A DNA stretch of 31,520 nt from a virus (lineage: Duplodnaviria > Heunggongvirae > Uroviricota > Caudoviricetes): the IMG/VR virus record IMGVR_UViG_2917870735_000002; one strand, 5' to 3'. The translations under genes and the position numbers were made by a program. Positions 1-31,520 of this stretch are shown here, piece after piece (positions within the stretch are counted from its first letter, which is position 1; the number at the start of each line of letters is the position of its first letter). The notes under the pieces were generated by a model. It was given only the letters and a program-made list of their open reading frames with translations. It searched no databases and had not been told where the DNA came from.

Positions 1-129
1 CTATTTATCGGAAGGTTTATCTTGCTGCGGTTTGTTGTTGACCATATCGCACAACATCGAGAGCAGCATTAACCGTACTTTAAAGGGAGAGTGACTAAAC
101 ACGCGCATACACCTCTTGAACTCATTCAT
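1..129 (-). CDS. small hypothetical protein (42 aa)
   Basis: Not in ORF track (<60 aa). ATG at 129-127 on minus strand with AGGAGG about 5 nt upstream; stop TAG at 3-1. Translation MNEFKRCMRVFSHSPFKVRLMLLSMLCDMVNNKPQQDKPSDK. Function unknown. Confidence 0.35.
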   Translation of the reverse strand: MNEFKRCMRVFSHSPFKVRLMLLSMLCDMVNNKPQQDKPSDK

Positions 130-296
130 AAGACCTCCTGACTTGCTAATCCCGTCGATCCATGAGGGATGATTGCATTACATACAGATATAGCACAGGC
201 TATATTATAAAGCATCAACTATCTACGAAAAACAATAACTTACAGTGTTATCAATAAGTTGCGTTAGTTAATATCTGTGAGTATTCGGCAGTATTT

Positions 297-1337
297 CTAA
301 GCTGTCGCGACATTTTTGCGACATTTTAAGGGGTTAAGTCGCACGGCATCTTCAAGGTGGCTTGGGGCGAAATGGGCATAACGCATTGTCATAGTGATGT
401 CAGCGTGGCCGAGAATTTTTTGCAGAACCAGAATGTTTCCGCCGTTCATCATAAAGTGGCTGGCAAATGTATGGCGCAGTACATGGGTAAGCTGGCCGGA
501 GGGGAGTTCAATGCCTGCACGTTCCAGAGCAGAGCGGAAAGCGTTGTAGCAGGGCTTGGGGAACAGAGCGCCTTTTGTTTCAGGTAATTCGGACAGAAGT
601 TCATCATCAAGGGGAATTGTTCTGTTGCGCTTCCCTTTGGTTTTGACGAACGTGACTTTACCCCCGGCGATCTGGGAGCTTTTCAGCGTTGCCGCCTCAT
701 TCCACCTTGCGCCGGTAGCAAGGCAGATTTTGACAACTAATTCTAGGTACTTAACTTTACTTCGTTTGCATTCCAGTAAAAGCCGATCAATTTCTTCGGT
801 AGTGAGGAAAGCCATTTCGGTTTCATCAGTACGATACTGTCTGACGTTTTCTAGTGGGTTGGGTGCTGACCATTCACCAATCCGTTTCAGCTCGTTGAAC
901 ATAGCCAGGAAGTAAGCATGTTCAAGGTTCATAGTTTTCGGGGAAACCTTAGATACTCTGTTGGTACGGGCATAATGCCCATCCAGCCTTTTAGCGCGGT
1001 AGGCTGTGAACAACTGGGCATTAAATTCTGTGGCCAGCGGGAATCCCATGCATTCCGCCGCCCAGGTCATAGCATTTTTACGCTTTTCGCCATTGCTCAA
1101 AGCTACGCCGTGGCGTTCATACCACATGTTGATTAGGTCGCTTAGAGTACGGAGGTCTTTACCCTCGCCAAGCCAGGGGGAGTTCTCCACTTGCTGAAGC
1201 GTATAGTTCTCGTAGGCCAGGGCTTCGCCTTTTGTAGCGAATTTTTTACGAATACGCTTACCGGCTTTACCATTGCTTCGATCCACCGTGTAGAAATCGG
1301 CAATCCACTGGCCATTTGTTAATTTTCTTACAGACAT
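297..1337 (-). CDS. int: tyrosine integrase, P2 Int family
   Basis: 346 aa. N-terminal GKxGKRIRKKF arm-binding motif; catalytic region LATGARWNEA ... HVLRHTFASHF ... LGHADITMTMRYAHF (R, H-x-x-R, Y) as in P2 Int from memory. 3' end faces the left flank, as in P2 where int reads towards attP. Confidence 0.93.
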   Translation of the reverse strand: MSVRKLTNGQWIADFYTVDRSNGKAGKRIRKKFATKGEALAYENYTLQQVENSPWLGEGKDLRTLSDLINMWYERHGVALSNGEKRKNAMTWAAECMGFPLATEFNAQLFTAYRAKRLDGHYARTNRVSKVSPKTMNLEHAYFLAMFNELKRIGEWSAPNPLENVRQYRTDETEMAFLTTEEIDRLLLECKRSKVKYLELVVKICLATGARWNEAATLKSSQIAGGKVTFVKTKGKRNRTIPLDDELLSELPETKGALFPKPCYNAFRSALERAGIELPSGQLTHVLRHTFASHFMMNGGNILVLQKILGHADITMTMRYAHFAPSHLEDAVRLNPLKCRKNVATA

Positions 1338-1340
1338 AGC

Positions 1341-1910
1341 TTAGCTGTTTAAAATGCGTTGTTTTTGCTGCTGAAATTCTTCTTCAGTAAGAATGCCTTC
1401 TGCTTTCATTTCAGCCAAACGTTCAATTTTATCCATGACATCATCAAATGAAGATTTTTCGTTGGAGCTTGTAGGAGCGGTGATAACTTGTGGCTTGTCC
1501 AGACTATTCCTTGTCTCATTAACAAGGTTGGTAAAAGGAATTACGGAGGATTTTATAACGTTTTTTATGGTGTAATTCTGTCCGCTTGTTGAAATCATTA
1601 TCTCACCAAATATCAGTCCAGTCTTTCCGCCAACGCTTACAATGTTACGAAGGCTAATATCGACCTGCTTAACACCAAATATCATCCCTTTATCGAGGAA
1701 GATAACGCGTTGGTTAGTTAAAGTTATTAACCAGGTGTTGCCATCCATCATACCGCTTACTATGCCAAGCGGTTCCTCGCCGGTGTTTAAAACTTCGGGA
1801 AGATGAAAAAATTCTTTTTTTGTACCAAATGGCGTATCTGAAACAGCGGCGGACAATCGTTTCATTTCTACTTTTAATTGGTCTTTAGATGCAGTCTTGT
1901 AATCTATCAT
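1341..1910 (-). CDS. cargo protein with PH-like beta-rich core and SHOCT-like C-terminus; function unknown
   Basis: ORF 1341..1979 trimmed to ATG at 1910 (MIDYKTASK...) with AAGGA about 8 nt upstream. C-terminal IERLAEMKAEGILTEEEFQQQKQRIL resembles SHOCT; central LITLTNQRVIFLDKG...GLIFGEIMISTSG resembles bacterial PH-like domains. Visibly AT-rich versus neighbours. Lies 14 bp after cI stop and 3 bp before int start, so co-transcribed with the repressor. Confidence 0.7.
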   Translation of the reverse strand: MIDYKTASKDQLKVEMKRLSAAVSDTPFGTKKEFFHLPEVLNTGEEPLGIVSGMMDGNTWLITLTNQRVIFLDKGMIFGVKQVDISLRNIVSVGGKTGLIFGEIMISTSGQNYTIKNVIKSSVIPFTNLVNETRNSLDKPQVITAPTSSNEKSSFDDVMDKIERLAEMKAEGILTEEEFQQQKQRILNS

Positions 1911-1924
1911 TATAATTTTCCTTA

Positions 1925-2503
1925 TTATTTTATAGTTAAGATAATACGACCTAAAATTTTTATATCTTCGATAGCGCAATCAAATGCCATCCCAACGCCA
2001 CTCACTCGAACTTTGCCTACGGGGATGCGCGTAAGGGTTCTCACACTTGTTTTTCCTTCAATTTCAACTAACCAATCATCGTCGTAAACTTCGGGAAAGT
2101 GTTGATCAACAATGTACTGCATTGCGTTGTCAATCACACAGATTGGATTCTGTGGTAAAGGCTTACCAGGTAAAAAAGTAACCTTATCGAGCATTAGCAA
2201 ACCGGAATCATAGAGTTTTCCGTCCACAATCTTCTTACGCGGCAGTTTCATGATGTCTAATTCGTCATCGTTAAACTTTCTTCCTTGCCCAGTCGCAAGC
2301 CATTCCAGAGTTGCTCCCGTTTCAGCCATGCATCTAACAACGATATCTGCTGGAAAAAAATCCCTCTTGTAGCGATTAGCCAGGCTGCTACTTGCTATAT
2401 CAAGATGTTCGGCCAGGGCTAATTTTGTGTTGAAACCATACGCCTGGATGACTCTGTCCAAGACTTCTGATCCGCCATGAGAAAATTCAATTTGTAGCTT
2501 CAC
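1925..2503 (-). CDS. cI: immunity repressor, phage 186 CI-like (192 aa)
   Basis: GTG start at 2503. N-terminal helix-turn-helix-like segment (GFNTKLALAEHLDIASSSLANR). Length matches the 192-aa 186 CI as I recall. Position between int and a divergent Cox/Apl-like gene. Confidence 0.8.
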   Translation of the reverse strand: MKLQIEFSHGGSEVLDRVIQAYGFNTKLALAEHLDIASSSLANRYKRDFFPADIVVRCMAETGATLEWLATGQGRKFNDDELDIMKLPRKKIVDGKLYDSGLLMLDKVTFLPGKPLPQNPICVIDNAMQYIVDQHFPEVYDDDWLVEIEGKTSVRTLTRIPVGKVRVSGVGMAFDCAIEDIKILGRIILTIK

Positions 2504-6989: not shown

Positions 6990-7003
6990 CAGGGTAAATA
7001 TGT

Positions 7004-7019
7004 GAAATGCATGCATTTC
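7004..7019. repeat. 16-bp perfect palindrome GAAATGCATGCATTTC just downstream of A
   Basis: Verified base by base; 15-30 bp after the A stop codon. Confidence 0.6.
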
Positions 7020-7074
7020 TCAGTAGATGGAAGGAAATTAAATTTCACTATTCGTGCTTTACGGTGTACGGTAT

Positions 7075-7092
7075 ACTGGATACTTATCCAGT
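7075..7092. repeat. 18-bp dyad ACTGGATA-ct-TATCCAGT
   Basis: 8-bp perfect inverted arms, 2-bp centre; preceded by TACGGT-g-TACGGT direct repeat. Confidence 0.6.
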
Positions 7093-7114
7093 CACTATTG
7101 CTTGTGGGGGCTAA

Positions 7115-7321
7115 ATGGATCTTTTGGAGGCGTCGGCACAGCTGGAACGCATTGAGTTATTAGCTAAAATTGCCCATGATTACGAAAGTAACCAGAGAGA
7201 AAAAACAATCGCTTTGGCCTGGATTGGAGAACTTGCGGAAGAGGTTCACAAAATGGTTAGAAAGGAAGGGAAAAGCCCTCATTCTGGGGGCTTTTTAGGC
7301 AGCGGGAGTCACTTTCAGTAA
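7115..7321 (+). CDS. hypothetical ORF (68 aa), doubtful
   Basis: ATG 7115 with weak GTGGGGG upstream; 3' end overlaps the convergent ogr-like gene by 27 nt. May be non-coding. Confidence 0.25.
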   Translation: MDLLEASAQLERIELLAKIAHDYESNQREKTIALAWIGELAEEVHKMVRKEGKSPHSGGFLGSGSHFQ

Positions 7322-7564
7322 ATCTAATGCTACCTGGCGCTGAGCGGGAGAAAGTGCACTCAGTATTTTTTGCACCACCGCATCACCCGTTTTAGCGCTG
7401 GGGCTGAGAGTGTGGGAAAATGTCAGATTCATAACAAATGTGTGGCCACATTCAACATCTGAACAGGCGCAGTAAATATCTGCAATTTGCCGATGCTTCC
7501 TGTTCGTTTTACGAATAACAGCCTTTGAGCCGCATTCCGGGCATTCGATTTTCAGAACTCGCAT
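7295..7564 (-). CDS. ogr: late gene transcriptional activator, Ogr/Delta zinc-finger family (89 aa)
   Basis: In-frame ATG at 7564 (MRVLKIECPECG...), GGAG about 11 nt upstream. Cys pattern CPEC ... CACSDVEC matches the C4 arrangement of P2 Ogr/186 B as I recall. About 17 aa longer at the C-terminus than the 72-aa P2/186 proteins. Confidence 0.8.
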   Translation of the reverse strand: MRVLKIECPECGSKAVIRKTNRKHRQIADIYCACSDVECGHTFVMNLTFSHTLSPSAKTGDAVVQKILSALSPAQRQVALDLLKVTPAA

Positions 7565-7614
7565 ATTCCATGCTCCAGCTGTTAAATGAAGCATGGATTT
7601 TAGCCAGTTTCGCA

Positions 7615-27262: not shown

Positions 27263-27316
27263 TGCTGACACTCACATGATAAGTTGAAACGTTCTGGACT
27301 TGCTGATAGCAGTATT

Positions 27317-27913
27317 TCAGTTGTTGTGTAGTTCAAGATAGTTAGAGGTGGAGTGCGTATCAAGCGGTAGTAGTTGTGCGGCTCTGCGGGTTATAAAGAC
27401 ACTATTGGCAGGAATGTTTCGGTTAACGAATGACATAGCACCAATTGTCACATTATCACCAATGGTCAGATCATCACCGATGATGCATGAATTTGCGCCA
27501 ATCTCGACATTGTCTCCGATCCTGATGGCTTTGATTCCTTCAACTGTTTTTAATCCAATCGTTGTGTTTTGTCGGATACGAACATTTTTTCCAATCACAG
27601 CCTGGGGACAAATGACTATTCCAACGAAGTGATAAATTTTGAATTTTTCCCCGATCTGTGCCCCCAATCCAATATCAGTATTGTATTTTGAAACAAGTCT
27701 CCGGTGGATTCTTCGTGCCCACTTAATACTTGATTTCCCTCCCTGACAGTAAAGGCAATTCGCTATCCTCCACCAACACATGAATCTGTGTCCGGGTTGT
27801 CTCCAGCAACGTAGTATGATTCTCCTCCAGGAGAAATTTTTACTGCTGTGCAGTATGTCCGCGCACAACAACTTCTTCATATCCTCATAATGCGACTTTT
27901 TGTTGTTGCTCAT
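27317..27913 (-). CDS. hexapeptide-repeat acetyltransferase, serine acetyltransferase (CysE)/WcaB-like
   Basis: 198 aa; ATG 27913 with AGGGAGA upstream. Helical N-terminus (HRFMCWWRIANCLY) then left-handed beta-helix repeats (DIGLGAQIGEKFKIYHFVGIVICPQAVIGKNVRIRQNTTIG ... IGDNVEIGANSCIIGDDLTIGDNVTIGAMSFV) paralleling the CysE core pattern. AT-rich; convergent with the last tail gene. Confidence 0.75.
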   Translation of the reverse strand: MSNNKKSHYEDMKKLLCADILHSSKNFSWRRIILRCWRQPGHRFMCWWRIANCLYCQGGKSSIKWARRIHRRLVSKYNTDIGLGAQIGEKFKIYHFVGIVICPQAVIGKNVRIRQNTTIGLKTVEGIKAIRIGDNVEIGANSCIIGDDLTIGDNVTIGAMSFVNRNIPANSVFITRRAAQLLPLDTHSTSNYLELHNN

Positions 27914-27928
27914 AAATTATTCTCCCTA

Positions 27929-27945
27929 ATAATCCTGAGGATTAT
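27929..27945. promoter_or_regulatory. 17-bp perfect palindrome ATAATCCTGAGGATTAT adjoining the acetyltransferase RBS
   Basis: 8-bp arms around a central G, verified base by base; 16-32 bp upstream of the start codon at 27913. Confidence 0.45.
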
Positions 27946-28466
27946 CGTACATGAGAATGATCTGATTTTCTGCTAACAACATTAAGTTATGTGGTCGGAA
28001 CTGATAATTGGCTACTTAATCCCAAATAATTAGTTGAATTACTAACAAAACATCTTTCTTATCTTGTCATAGATGTCGGCAGAGGGATTATTAACCCTTT
28101 AATAACAAACCTAACTTGGTCACTAAGTATAAAAGAACAGAATTGTAGCGTTGCGCTGGTATGGTGATATGGCGACAAAATAAATCCTTTGCAGACAAAA
28201 ACGGCGCTACACCGCACCCGCCTGCGGTTTCTGGATCTGGAAAATTTTTCAGTTTTATTTTTTTACAAACAGCACCGCCAGACCGCGCCACGGTTGGCTG
28301 CTTGCCAAAGAACAGGAACTGAAAAGATTGAAAAGAATTTCAGCATTTTTCAGTTTAGAGGATCTGTAAAGGATCTAAGTGGAAAGGCAAGCAATTGAAA
28401 TATAATAATAAATTTTATATTTGTGGAGTGGAGAAGATCAAATGTCGAAGGCAATGTGTAGGAGGA

Positions 28467-28499
28467 AAAACCCGCAATGCCAGTTGTGGTGCGGGTTTT
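28467..28499 (-). terminator. rho-independent terminator-like hairpin (10-bp stem AAAACCCGCA/TGCGGGTTTT, 13-nt loop)
   Basis: Perfect stem verified; on the minus strand the stem ends in UUUU followed by UCCUCC; about 70 bp downstream of the minus-strand 122-aa gene. Confidence 0.55.
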
Positions 28500-28566
28500 A
28501 GGGGGATTAGATTAAATTCAGAAAGTGAAATTAGCATACCTATACTTTAAGTGCGCCAATAGGTAA

Positions 28567-28935
28567 TCAATTTTCATCAATATGACTTTCGTTTTCATCT
28601 TTGTACCATGTGGGCAAATTATCTGTAATTTGTTCATTAATTACATTTTGAGTGTCAGCAGGTAGCAGTTTAAAAATCTCAAAAATAAAGTTTGATATTT
28701 CAACTTTTACATCAGCAGTAGGGCCATAAAAATCATCTTTAACATAATCCCATTTATGCTTTATTAAAGTTGATTCTGGATATTGTATTTTGACTAAGCC
28801 AATTTGTTTGTAAATCCAATTTATGGCGCTATCTGCTCCAGAGAAGGCCTCATTACCGCTATTAATAAATGGCCCAACATCATAGACACGTTTAGTGTTA
28901 TTATCTAAAACTCTTACATAACAATTGGTTGCCAT
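28567..28935 (-). CDS. hypothetical small acidic protein (122 aa)
   Basis: ATG 28935 with AAGGTGG upstream; 15 bp after the 104-aa gene on the same strand; AT-rich; acidic C-terminus. Confidence 0.6.
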   Translation of the reverse strand: MATNCYVRVLDNNTKRVYDVGPFINSGNEAFSGADSAINWIYKQIGLVKIQYPESTLIKHKWDYVKDDFYGPTADVKVEISNFIFEIFKLLPADTQNVINEQITDNLPTWYKDENESHIDEN

Positions 28936-28950
28936 ACCCCACCTTTTTTA

Positions 28951-29265
28951 TTAGCCAATGTACCGTACACGATTGCCGTTATATAATGGCCATTCGTTTA
29001 GCAAATCTCTAAGTAGTCTTTCCATGTGAGTTGCATCTTCTGCTGCATTTTTTCCAACATAGTCATTTCCACGTTGGAAAGTTTCATAACGCATTGCCAT
29101 TGATGGGGTGTTTTCTTCAAAGCCAATTGGAGACAAATCATTTATTTGTGTAACTGCTACATCGCCAGATTTAGATACCCAGAGAATATGATGACCTGCG
29201 TTATCGTCGCAAGCAGAGATTAGTTGTGAGAGTTGGCTTACTGTAGGGTTATTGTTTAAGTTCAT
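28951..29265 (-). CDS. hypothetical small protein (104 aa)
   Basis: ATG 29265 with AAGAGG 8 nt upstream; first gene of a two-gene cassette. Confidence 0.6.
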   Translation of the reverse strand: MNLNNNPTVSQLSQLISACDDNAGHHILWVSKSGDVAVTQINDLSPIGFEENTPSMAMRYETFQRGNDYVGKNAAEDATHMERLLRDLLNEWPLYNGNRVRYIG

Positions 29266-29474
29266 TTAAATACCTCTTTTAATAAGATTTAGTTATAACG
29301 TAAAACAAGCCACAAATTGATTATCTATCCTCATAGGCTGCATATCAACTTTAGATTTTAGGCGGTGTGGATCGTGGTAAGCCAGAGATTATAGAGATAA
29401 GCCCGCTTGTAAGAACTGGCGCGGGCTGCACGTAAATTTATGAAATCTTCACAACTGAAATTTGTTCAGCGAAA

Positions 29475-30101
29475 TTACAGCACTGTTTCTGCGGAACGGG
29501 ACGCTTCTTTTGTCGCATTGCCAGTGATAAAAGGCTGCTTTTCCTGATATTCCGACTGCGGTAGTTTGGATGTATACACTGGCGTGATCTTGTTTTTATA
29601 AACGGTGTCACTGGGGATGTTCTGAAGCACCAGTGAATGCGCACCAATGGTGACATTGTTTCCGATTGTAATCTTGCCGCCCAGAATGGACGAGTTACAG
29701 CCAATATCAACATGATCACCAATGATTATCATTGCGTCGACACTGTCGGTGCGTAACCCTATGGTGATGCCTTGCTTCAGGTCGGCGAAATCACCAATCA
29801 CGCAATTGTCAGTAATGACAATACCGTTCAAATGAGCAATGTTTAACCCCTTGCCGATTTTGCACGACAGAGAAATATCAACGCTGTGCCGGTACTTGAG
29901 GCGGTTTTCAATTCTGCGGGCAATGCGCTTTTTGAACTTACTATTCTGGCCATAGAGCCATGAAGCAATACGCCACCAGAACAGGAAGTGCTTCTTCTGG
30001 TTGCGTCGGGTACGAAGTAACGCTTTACGCCATGAAAAGGCTTTGTCATGGCCAATGACTTCAAGGCGGATACATTCTTTACGATGGTCGTAGGAAGTCA
30101 T
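29475..30101 (-). CDS. hexapeptide-repeat acetyltransferase, CysE/WcaB-like (divergent paralog of 27317..27913)
   Basis: 208 aa; shares N-terminal motif (FSWR..., WWRIASWLY) and beta-helix repeats (IGDFADLKQGITIGL ... IGDHVDIGCNSSILGGKITIGNNVTIGAHSLV) with the other acetyltransferase. Confidence 0.75.
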   Translation of the reverse strand: MTSYDHRKECIRLEVIGHDKAFSWRKALLRTRRNQKKHFLFWWRIASWLYGQNSKFKKRIARRIENRLKYRHSVDISLSCKIGKGLNIAHLNGIVITDNCVIGDFADLKQGITIGLRTDSVDAMIIIGDHVDIGCNSSILGGKITIGNNVTIGAHSLVLQNIPSDTVYKNKITPVYTSKLPQSEYQEKQPFITGNATKEASRSAETVL

Positions 30102-30210
30102 GATTAGTCATCCTGACAGAATATTATAGGTACTTGAAATTATGCTTCCATTTGATTGCTAATGGAAGAGAATGGCCATATTTTGAATTTTATAAAAAAT
30201 ATGAGGGAGT

Positions 30211-30245
30211 ATCACCCTTACCACTCATGGAGTGGTAAGGGTGAT
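30211..30245. repeat. 35-bp inverted repeat ATCACCCTTACCACTC-atg-GAGTGGTAAGGGTGAT (16-bp perfect arms)
   Basis: All 16 pairs verified; between the 411-aa gene stop (30285) and acetyltransferase 2 start (30101). On the minus strand a T6 run lies about 10 nt after the stem. Confidence 0.8.
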
Positions 30246-30284
30246 TGAACTAAGTAAATATTGTAGAATAATCGAGCTAAAGTT

Positions 30285-31520
30285 TTAGAGGTGAAACCAA
30301 GAATAAGTAGCTTCATCTTTTTCAAAAATATACTGTATATGTAATTCAACTAACCAGAGACTAACTATTTTAAGCGTAAGTTTATTACATAAATGAATAT
30401 ACCTTGTATAACTTATTTCTCTTTCAGCTCCTGTACCCCCACTTTTGTATCGAACAGATTCTCCATCATGCCATATTGATGCGTGATGCGAGCCATTCCT
30501 AATTGTAGATTCTAAATCATCTTCACAAAAGGCGGTAAATAATTCATTGTCTTTAAATGGATTTATCTTTCCTTCTTTATTAACATCTTTTATATATTTG
30601 TTTAGTGTCATTGTTTTGAATTGATCAAAACTCCTTCCATTAATAATGTTATTAATGCAGGCTAATATTGTCATGTTAGATGTTAAAGTTTCATAAGCAT
30701 CACCATAGTAATTACGGATTTTATCAAAGTTTTTTGAACTGATGATTTTGGTGTCAATTTCATCGTTGTTTATTCTTGCGTAATATATTAGTTGGCCAAA
30801 ATGATCTCGACGAGACATGAAGTCTGATATGATGTTTATATATCTTTGTTGATTTTCAACCTGTAGGTTTTGTTTATAAAATTTATAGAAATCGTCCAGT
30901 AATCCATTTTTTTTAAGCTCGTCAATTTCTAGCTTTATAGGTTCGGCAATGTCATGAACACGAGGGTAGAAAAGCCAATCTAAAAACTCATAACTAATTG
31001 AAGTGAAAGAGTACATTGAATCCTTTTTGTAAAGAGGTAATTCTTCATTTCGTGACTGCATGTATAATTTTGCTGTACGCTGTGCTTTTTCTATTTCCCC
31101 ATTGTTAATAAGTTTTGCAATGGATTTTAAATAAGCCCATTTTGACGGAGCGTTAGGAATATCAAATTGGTGTGAAATGCTGATAATTCTTTGTCCAGGT
31201 GGCATCCTCATATGCTTATGGAGCATGCTCGTTAACTCAAGGGATGGGAAAGTTGTTGGTGAATGAATTTCATCTTTGTCGAAAGCACAAGCTGGGTGAA
31301 AATTAACTACTTTATGTTCTAAGCTATATTCAACAATAATACAATTTTCTTCAACTTGAATGTAAGCGCTGGGGGGAATAGCTTTTACAGCAAAAACAAT
31401 TGGCATATTACATTCAAAACAATCCATGAAATGCTTTTGATATTTATCAATTCCGACCCCAACCCTTACACGATAAATAGCGTTACATGACTGACATTGG
31501 ATGCTATTACCGATTACCAT
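30285..31520 (-). CDS. hypothetical Cys-rich protein (at least 411 aa); zinc-ribbon-like N-terminus; 5' end at window edge
   Basis: ORF runs to the last base; first ATG is at 31520-31518 so the true start may lie outside. N-terminus has CQSC-x22-CFEC spacing; very AT-rich; no recognisable catalytic motif. Confidence 0.6.
   Translation of the reverse strand: MVIGNSIQCQSCNAIYRVRVGVGIDKYQKHFMDCFECNMPIVFAVKAIPPSAYIQVEENCIIVEYSLEHKVVNFHPACAFDKDEIHSPTTFPSLELTSMLHKHMRMPPGQRIISISHQFDIPNAPSKWAYLKSIAKLINNGEIEKAQRTAKLYMQSRNEELPLYKKDSMYSFTSISYEFLDWLFYPRVHDIAEPIKLEIDELKKNGLLDDFYKFYKQNLQVENQQRYINIISDFMSRRDHFGQLIYYARINNDEIDTKIISSKNFDKIRNYYGDAYETLTSNMTILACINNIINGRSFDQFKTMTLNKYIKDVNKEGKINPFKDNELFTAFCEDDLESTIRNGSHHASIWHDGESVRYKSGGTGAEREISYTRYIHLCNKLTLKIVSLWLVELHIQYIFEKDEATYSWFHL

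Follow-up and report, generated by a model that had tools for sequence, protein, structure and literature searches.

The DNA analysed here, which we call the window, is a 31,520-nt stretch from a virus of the class Caudoviricetes (IMG/VR record IMGVR_UViG_2917870735_000002) that comprises a 186-type E. coli prophage and a short host flank. The subject of this analysis is a 189-amino-acid (aa) open reading frame (ORF), hereafter the cargo gene, that sits inside the lysogeny operon between the genes for the CI immunity repressor (cI) and the integrase (int), and that encodes a bPH_3 domain followed by a SHOCT domain. The cargo gene is accessory cargo of this prophage. The locus is laid out as follows.

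2504–2622, no strand assigned: divergent control region between cI and apl, with the gene order of phage 186
1925–2503, minus strand: cI, 186-type CI immunity repressor, 192 aa, GTG start, TAA stop at 1927–1925; first gene of the lysogenic operon
1911–1924, minus strand: 14-nt spacer from cI stop to cargo start, carrying the ribosome-binding site AAGGAAAA
1341–1910, minus strand: cargo gene, 189 aa, reading from the ATG at 1910 to the TAA stop at 1343–1341
1515–1790, minus strand: bPH_3 domain (PF14470), aa 41–132, Pfam E=1.8e-18
1350–1433, minus strand: SHOCT domain (PF09851), aa 160–187, Pfam E=3.1e-9, an acidic amphipathic helical hairpin
1338–1340, minus strand: 3-nt spacer GCT from cargo stop to the int ATG
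297–1337, minus strand: int, tyrosine integrase, 346 aa, ATG at 1337, Pfam Int_N and Phage_integrase; last gene of the operon

Reading the minus strand directly, we recovered the arrangement that a first-pass annotation, made from the letters alone, had described: a 189-aa ORF between repressor and integrase with spacers of 14 and 3 nt, the longer of which reads TAAGGAAAATTATA in full. A longer ORF with a TTG start at 1979 (212 aa) was rejected; all 39 of the 39 aligned homologues begin at the MIDYK/MINYK position, so the ATG at 1910 is the real start. The repressor matches Phage_CI_repr (2e-25) and Phage_CI_C (1e-30), an apl/cox-like gene and cII (CP76), both identified by Pfam, are transcribed divergently from it, and downstream of int come the attachment (att) region and then host mntS at 129 to 1 (the mntS/opgE flank). 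The gene had also been called clearly lower in GC content than its surroundings, which holds against int (0.489) and the rest of the prophage (0.490) for a cargo value of 0.384 (0.368 at third codon positions), and holds only modestly against cI, itself AT-rich at 0.421.

Evaluating this junction across related phages revealed that the gene is an insertion, as had been proposed, with variable presence. The statement that P2 and 186 carry nothing between repressor and integrase agrees with their records: cI and int of 186 overlap by 1 nt, with orf69 following int, and C and int of P2 lie 115 nt apart without an intervening gene. At this mntS site, the closest complete E. coli genomes hold a prophage of ~90% identity whose cI stop is 1 nt from the int start. 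A homologue at the DNA level (72.8% identity) turned up in only 1 of 5426 complete E. coli genomes, lying between cI and int of a different 186-type prophage near ypjA. Public sequencing runs contain the exact cargo protein on 13 contigs; each of the five places displayed reads cI–gene–int, and mntS follows in the two of these that reach the flank. The comparison of int–cI intervals suggested in the first-pass annotation was carried out by scanning IMG/VR with the CI of the window, which gave 49 related loci (viral contigs; comparison loci are cited below by L numbers) in three states.

Slot empty, gap of 4–19 nt: 21 of 49 loci
Slot holding a bPH_3–SHOCT gene, gap of 571–597 nt: 16 of 49 loci
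Slot holding other cargo, gap of 481–1907 nt: 12 of 49 loci

The cI–int junction of 186-type prophages is a polymorphic cargo slot, and the bPH_3–SHOCT gene is its commonest occupant in the 49-locus sample. Far from being universal and phage-like in composition, the gene is absent from most relatives and differs in GC content from the rest of its prophage (0.384 vs 0.490). The other cargo is likewise AT-rich (GC 0.31–0.39, vs 0.40–0.48 in its flanks) and comprises at least seven further types, most of them with no Pfam or PADLOC match, at these coordinates.

L095:4087–4998: transmembrane (TM) protein with a WYL domain
L133:4093–5970: trio of a 369-aa protein, a DUF4325 (STAS-like) protein and a 152-aa protein
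L135:4089–4991, L136:4090–5034 and L137:4090–5025: TIR-like proteins of ~305 aa (PADLOC Effector TIR, 5e-9)
L096:2397–3110, L098:4103–4819, L116:4105–4542, L118:4110–5191, L132:4117–5192, L139:4129–4656 and L140:4130–4657: other cargo

Also present in the slot are a pair of 110 and 249 aa, a multi-TM protein, and two distinct proteins that appear to have signal peptides (their N-termini judged by eye); the slot in relatives carries other defence-like cargo. Slot content varies even within an immunity type, as loci with at least 90% identical CI differ in what they hold: in one such cluster L092–L094 and L097 are empty (their cI being 93% identical to that of the window), L095 carries the TM–WYL protein and the window the PH–SHOCT protein, and in another L134 carries PH–SHOCT and L135–L137 the TIR-like proteins.

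In a sliding comparison with the empty-slot relatives, the window is 90–100% identical over most of cI and int, with a dip in identity on either side of the insertion.

1943–2092, minus strand: 3' end of cI (last ~150 nt), identity falling to 78–80%, with 90–96% further upstream
1109–1318, minus strand: 5' end of int (first ~230 nt), identity falling to 68–81%, with 90–100% further downstream

Such dips point to exchange of the cassette through homologous recombination within the genes on either side; the two flanks appear to form the sides of the recombination tract that introduced the cargo, and the cassette would move between related prophages by this same route.

We next consider the gene and its family. 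Comparing the window with its relatives by NG86 dN/dS failed as synonymous sites were saturated (pN 0.11–0.27, pS about 0.8), and it was replaced by pN/pS on closer pairs, which gave 0.02–0.06 in unsaturated pairs and points to strong purifying selection on the cargo gene. Against L099, dN was 0.123 for the cargo, 0.150 for cI and 0.156 for int. A word-indexed search returned 356 homologues, nearly all of 182–195 aa with both domains, ranging from Enterobacterales on to Pseudomonas, Burkholderia, Cupriavidus and others, with identity dropping roughly with host distance. When 1.84 billion cluster representatives were searched with a profile, 215 clusters matched at E<=1e-30, rising to 1307 at E<=1e-10 and 6680 at E<=1e-3; RefSeq names members only as 'PH domain-containing protein'.

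Among species-representative genomes, intact cI–gene–int modules occur in Mixta, Siccibacter, Erwinia, Escherichia sp. and Gilliamella, and an intact gene stands beside fragments of cI or int in Serratia (L012), Lonsdalea (L013 and L016) and L039. In 7 of the 8 Sodalis/Acerihabitans loci L022–L028 and L030, orphan intact copies (50–56% identity) adjoin ubiF-like FAD-monooxygenase and miaB-like genes, with no cI, int or gpA nearby; these copies have the appearance of a domesticated remnant that several species have retained. Such retention after prophage decay implies that the product benefits the cell rather than merely serving the lysogeny switch. In some genomes a bPH_3–SHOCT gene lies near toxin or restriction genes, and in ten phylogenetically distant loci a conserved two-TM protein of ~90 aa (motif LYFFFGI..KFLWGW...TNNWQ..LYF) is encoded 0–12 nt downstream.

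L036:3028–3297, L037:5563–5832, L043:5546–5815, L045:886–1152 and L050:3978–4250: two-TM partner
L051:5550–5822, L058:5550–5828, L059:5482–5763, L065:1924–2193 and L076:393–665: two-TM partner

A Pfam summary of downstream neighbours contained no family with as many members as this protein, which suggests that bPH_3–SHOCT and the two-TM protein make up an undescribed two-gene module.

Turning to the cargo protein, the first-pass annotation had read a PH-like core and a SHOCT-like tail, and the profile searches it called for matched both, in N-to-C order, above the Pfam cut-offs and far beyond chance. The protein also matches PHROG 2700 (phrog_2700, function unknown) at 6e-72. An N-terminal helical region (aa 1–40) with a conserved FGTKKEFFHLP motif precedes the PH-like domain, which is followed by a variable linker and the bi-helical SHOCT tail. 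An AlphaFold2 model built on the homologue alignment (mean predicted local distance difference test score 88) places an N-terminal helix at residues 9–22, then a short helical segment bearing the motif, a seven-stranded PH core (strands 47–119) with a capping helix (120–136), a disordered linker (141–153) and a SHOCT two-helix hairpin at 155–188 (helices 155–170 and 176–188). This hairpin has a net charge of -4 (family mean -2.2) and a hydrophobic moment of 0.53. No enzymatic domain was found in the cargo protein, nor fused to the module in the longer relatives examined, where the fusions are to ankyrin repeats, a Zn-ribbon, tandem PH copies, WG repeats/LprI, a TM segment and an apparently L7/L12-CTD-like tail (judged by eye). 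A PDB sequence-profile search with the family returned nothing below E=0.4, that is, no solved structure by sequence.

Membership of the protein in both domain families is clear, and the papers describing these families assign no biological function. Bacterial PH domains are Pfam bPH_1 to bPH_3 (Xu 2010, as cited in PMC3581485), and the paper on the SHOCT domain (Eberhardt 2013, PMC3581485) had already noted its co-occurrence with the bacterial PH domain PF03703 (bPH_2) and reported a negative test of SHOCT oligomerisation. SHOCT-like domains have been predicted to tether domains to the inner leaflet and linked to envelope-stress (PSP) contexts (PMC11237479).

The clearest indication of function comes from Gram-positive temperate phages. 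Searching phage genomes with tblastn revealed homologues of 32–41% identity in many phages of Staphylococcus, Lactococcus, Streptococcus, Lactobacillus and Blautia. Of the four records inspected, three place the gene within the lysogeny module, with repressor and integrase encoded on its strand.

TP901-1 (Lactococcus): cI – Orf3 – Orf2 – int
phiETA2 (Staphylococcus): helix-turn-helix gene – ORF5 – ORF4 – ORF3 – xis – int
Montmirail (Blautia): in the lysogeny module, same strand
Mcat13 (Moraxella): among tail genes, the exception

TP901-1 Orf2 (181 aa) and phiETA2 ORF4 share the bPH_3–SHOCT architecture, and by blastp the cargo protein is 34% identical to Orf2 over 167 aa (E=1e-24), with the FGTKKE..LP motif common to both. 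Directly upstream and next to the repressor, phiETA2 (L002:2083–3510) and TP901-1 (L001:2436–3477) encode a Peptidase_M78 (ImmA/IrrE-like) protein, a pairing conserved in these two Firmicute genera and absent in the proteobacterial versions.

Orf2 and Orf3 of TP901-1 are 100% identical to SieF7/2AB of L. lactis F7/2 (PMC7693887), Orf2 corresponding to SieF7/2A; SieF7/2AB was described as a two-component system by which lactococcal P335 phages confer phage resistance (McGrath 2002, as cited in PMC7693887). With orf2/3 cloned on pNZ44, Ruiz-Cruz 2020 obtained the following efficiencies of plating (EOP) on 3107::pNZorf2/3 (PMC7693887).

WRP3: <=9e-11
P087: <=1.6e-9
66901: 2.2e-6
62601: 6.7e-4
Dub35A: 0.01
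86501: 0.02
949: 0.12
TP901-1, LC3 and 63301: 0.8–1

A single-copy TP901-1 lysogen gave the same pattern for 66901, WRP3 and P087, and orf2/3 also reduced plaque size (PMC7693887). By these data, a homologue in the equivalent position is part of a prophage-expressed defence against heterologous phages. The first-pass annotation had held that no role in phage immunity is assigned to the architecture; this stands insofar as our literature search for the PH-domain/SHOCT architecture together with phage, prophage or defence found no paper linking it to phage resistance, and PMC7693887 makes no mention of a PH or SHOCT domain in Orf2, and it fails insofar as Orf2, with Orf3, gives heterologous resistance. 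Orf2, too, has no TM helix, and we speculate that its 'membrane-associated' label derives from hydrophobic PH beta-strands (maximum 19-residue Kyte-Doolittle hydropathy, KD19, 1.63). The cargo protein and Orf2 thus agree in domains, motif, similar length, and position from repressor to integrase on the same strand, and Orf2 is expressed from its prophage. They differ in that the M78 gene adjoins Orf2, whereas the cargo gene has only cI and int as neighbours, and in the Gram-negative host, the P2/186-type myovirus and the other repressor type of the window.

Expression of the cargo gene in the lysogen would follow from its packing. From 2503 to 297, a consensus scan found nothing promoter-like on the coding strand, and the one terminator-like hairpin on that strand in this interval is weak and lies inside cI, with counts that do not exceed those of shuffles. 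The phage 186 annotation has the pL (lysogens) and pE (establishment) transcripts running through cI, int and orf69. Given this annotation, the tight packing and the lack of an internal promoter or convincing terminator, co-transcription with cI is the natural inference, and the cargo would be made constitutively in lysogens from the repressor transcript. The lysogenic promoter is presumed, as in phage 186, to lie in 2504–2622 or inside apl. The spacers of 14 and 3 nt resemble the 1-nt cI/int coupling of relatives whose slot is empty, and the tight junction implies that translation of int may be coupled to the cargo gene as it would be to cI in those relatives.

As a side observation, the prophage has inserted about 170 nt upstream of mntS (window 1–296), and its cI–cargo–int operon runs towards mntS in the same orientation; a terminator-like site was not found after int on that strand, and read-through into this manganese-regulator gene is conceivable.

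Taking position, architecture and the Orf2 homology together, we give roughly even odds to the cargo being a lysogen-expressed, non-enzymatic phage-resistance protein of the exclusion type, directed against heterologous phages; our confidence in any specific mode of action is considerably less. The product would be a soluble binding protein with a PH-like domain and an acidic SHOCT hairpin, in the family of TP901-1 Orf2. Its SHOCT hairpin would probably dock to a membrane-associated partner and its PH domain to a phage or host ligand, such that an early step of infection would be blocked from the cytoplasmic side, probably near the inner membrane, with no enzymatic attack on DNA. Membrane-proximal action is hinted at by the two-TM partner in the ten loci, by the TM segment that follows SHOCT directly in some relatives, and by the tethering prediction for SHOCT-like domains (PMC11237479). 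Direct membrane anchoring by SHOCT was considered and is weakened by the net acidic hairpin.

Several observations weigh against this exclusion-type reading. The net acidic SHOCT tail argues against direct binding to anionic membranes, and the cargo protein has no TM helix, signal peptide or N-terminal hydrophobic segment, its highest KD19 (1.21) falling inside the PH beta-sheet. Scans of the protein returned 0 families at E<=1 in PADLOC-DB v2.0.0 and 0 families in NCBIfam, and the domain fusions of longer relatives (ankyrin, Zn-ribbon, TM) indicate no activity. Many family members occur in non-phage contexts. The tested homologue is only 34% identical and was assayed solely as a pair with the M78 peptidase Orf3, and neither an M78 peptidase nor the ~90-aa two-TM partner is encoded anywhere in the window (in tblastn against all of the window, TP901-1 Orf3 and phiETA2 ORF5 gave nothing better than E=0.67). 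The consensus scan found no minus-strand promoter in the control region, where the sole promoter-like site is on the plus strand at 2516–2545, and this region is too diverged to be usefully aligned with that of 186. To these is added the difference from classical superinfection-exclusion (Sie) proteins. Prophage exclusion proteins include Ltp of TP-J34, SieA and SieB of P22 and Sim of P1. A classical example in a lysogeny module is Sie2009 of Tuc2009 (PMC7693887), and the cargo would share the genomic logic of such proteins, whose small genes lie between repressor and integrase or beside one of them, are expressed in the lysogen and act against heterologous phages. Classical Sie proteins are, however, membrane or lipoproteins with a hydrophobic N-terminus, and the cargo protein is unrelated to them in sequence and, having no TM helix or signal peptide, cannot work as they do.

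Part of the same evidence would fit an abortive-infection sensor, in which the PH domain recognises a phage protein and SHOCT activates a host or partner effector that kills or arrests the infected cell instead of keeping the phage out. The reduced plaque size with TP901-1 orf2/3, the sharply phage-specific EOP (<=9e-11 for WRP3 vs 0.12 for 949) and the recurrent adjacent partners (M78 in TP901-1 and phiETA2, the two-TM protein in 10 loci) speak for such a sensor, but neither partner is encoded in the window, the protein lacks an effector domain, and an unknown host effector would be required; we consider this unlikely.

We give a similarly low probability to a lysogenic-conversion factor unrelated to phages, that is, a membrane-proximal scaffold altering host envelope or stress physiology. 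The window shows no linkage to envelope-stress genes, the strongest positional association of the family across phyla is with prophage lysogeny modules, and its only experimental data concern phage resistance, all of which count against a conversion factor that would otherwise draw on the link of SHOCT-like domains to envelope-stress (PSP) contexts (PMC11237479), the TM partners and fusions in relatives, and the retained chromosomal orphans.

Improbable, too, is an accessory regulator of the lysogeny switch that modulates the repressor, integrase/excision or induction and does not act on other phages. The gene does lie inside the cI–int operon and directly precedes int with the geometry of translational coupling, and its Firmicute neighbour is an ImmA/IrrE-type M78 peptidase, a kind that usually acts on the repressor. 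Yet most relatives lack the gene, even some whose cI and int are 93% and 94% identical, respectively, unrelated cargo occupies the same slot, intact copies are kept as orphans or beside broken cI or int, and the orf2/3 phenotype falls on heterologous phages and not on TP901-1. A functionless passenger or annotation artefact is effectively refuted by the Pfam matches (1e-18 and 3e-9), the 356 homologues of the same length and architecture, and the pN/pS of 0.02–0.06; that 13 independent contigs carry the identical protein in this context also speaks against it.

That prophages carry defence or exclusion cargo in their lysogeny modules, and that P2-like phages have swappable hotspots, is already known. 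P2-like prophages carry AT-rich, rapidly swapped anti-phage cargo at fixed positions (Rousset 2022, PMC9122126; NAR 2026, PMC13586616), the main hotspots being gpA–gpQ and the tail region, whereas the cI–int junction of 186-type phages and the bPH_3–SHOCT family are not mentioned, with 0 occurrences each of 'PH domain' and 'SHOCT' in the hotspot paper. In the window, the gpA–gpQ interval (6990–7614) spans just some 625 nt without any ORF of at least 110 aa, which implies that the cargo of this prophage lies at other positions. What is new is that a large unannotated family is tied by homology to the TP901-1 Orf2/3 phenotype, that a solitary, partner-less version occurs in a Gram-negative P2/186-type phage, and that the cI–int cassette slot, with its other, mostly unknown occupants, is defined at nucleotide level, which extends the P2/P4 hotspot picture. 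Phage resistance is the sole experimentally supported phenotype of the family, and the link lands in E. coli, a readily testable host.

If the cargo protein works alone, with no enzymatic domain and no membrane anchor, its mechanism would differ both from classical Sie proteins and from enzymatic defence. More tentatively, and with distinctly less confidence than for the cargo gene's own anti-phage role, solitary bPH_3–SHOCT proteins might represent a phylum-spanning, non-enzymatic anti-phage class missing from PADLOC that acts from the cytoplasm at an early step, with the cI–int slot not previously mapped at this resolution and its occupants being largely undescribed defence genes. Were this true, the other occupants (the TIR-like and TM–WYL proteins, the DUF4325 trio, the secreted and membrane proteins) would be directly minable as defence genes.

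A second AT-rich block lies at the tail-gene end of the window (27300–31520, minus strand; GC 0.29–0.46 vs about 0.52 upstream). It holds two hexapeptide-repeat acyltransferase genes (27317–27913 and 29475–30101) and two ORFs without Pfam matches, and it is patchily conserved in E. coli, with a best coverage of 27%. This block is probably another cargo island, possibly concerned with surface-polysaccharide modification.

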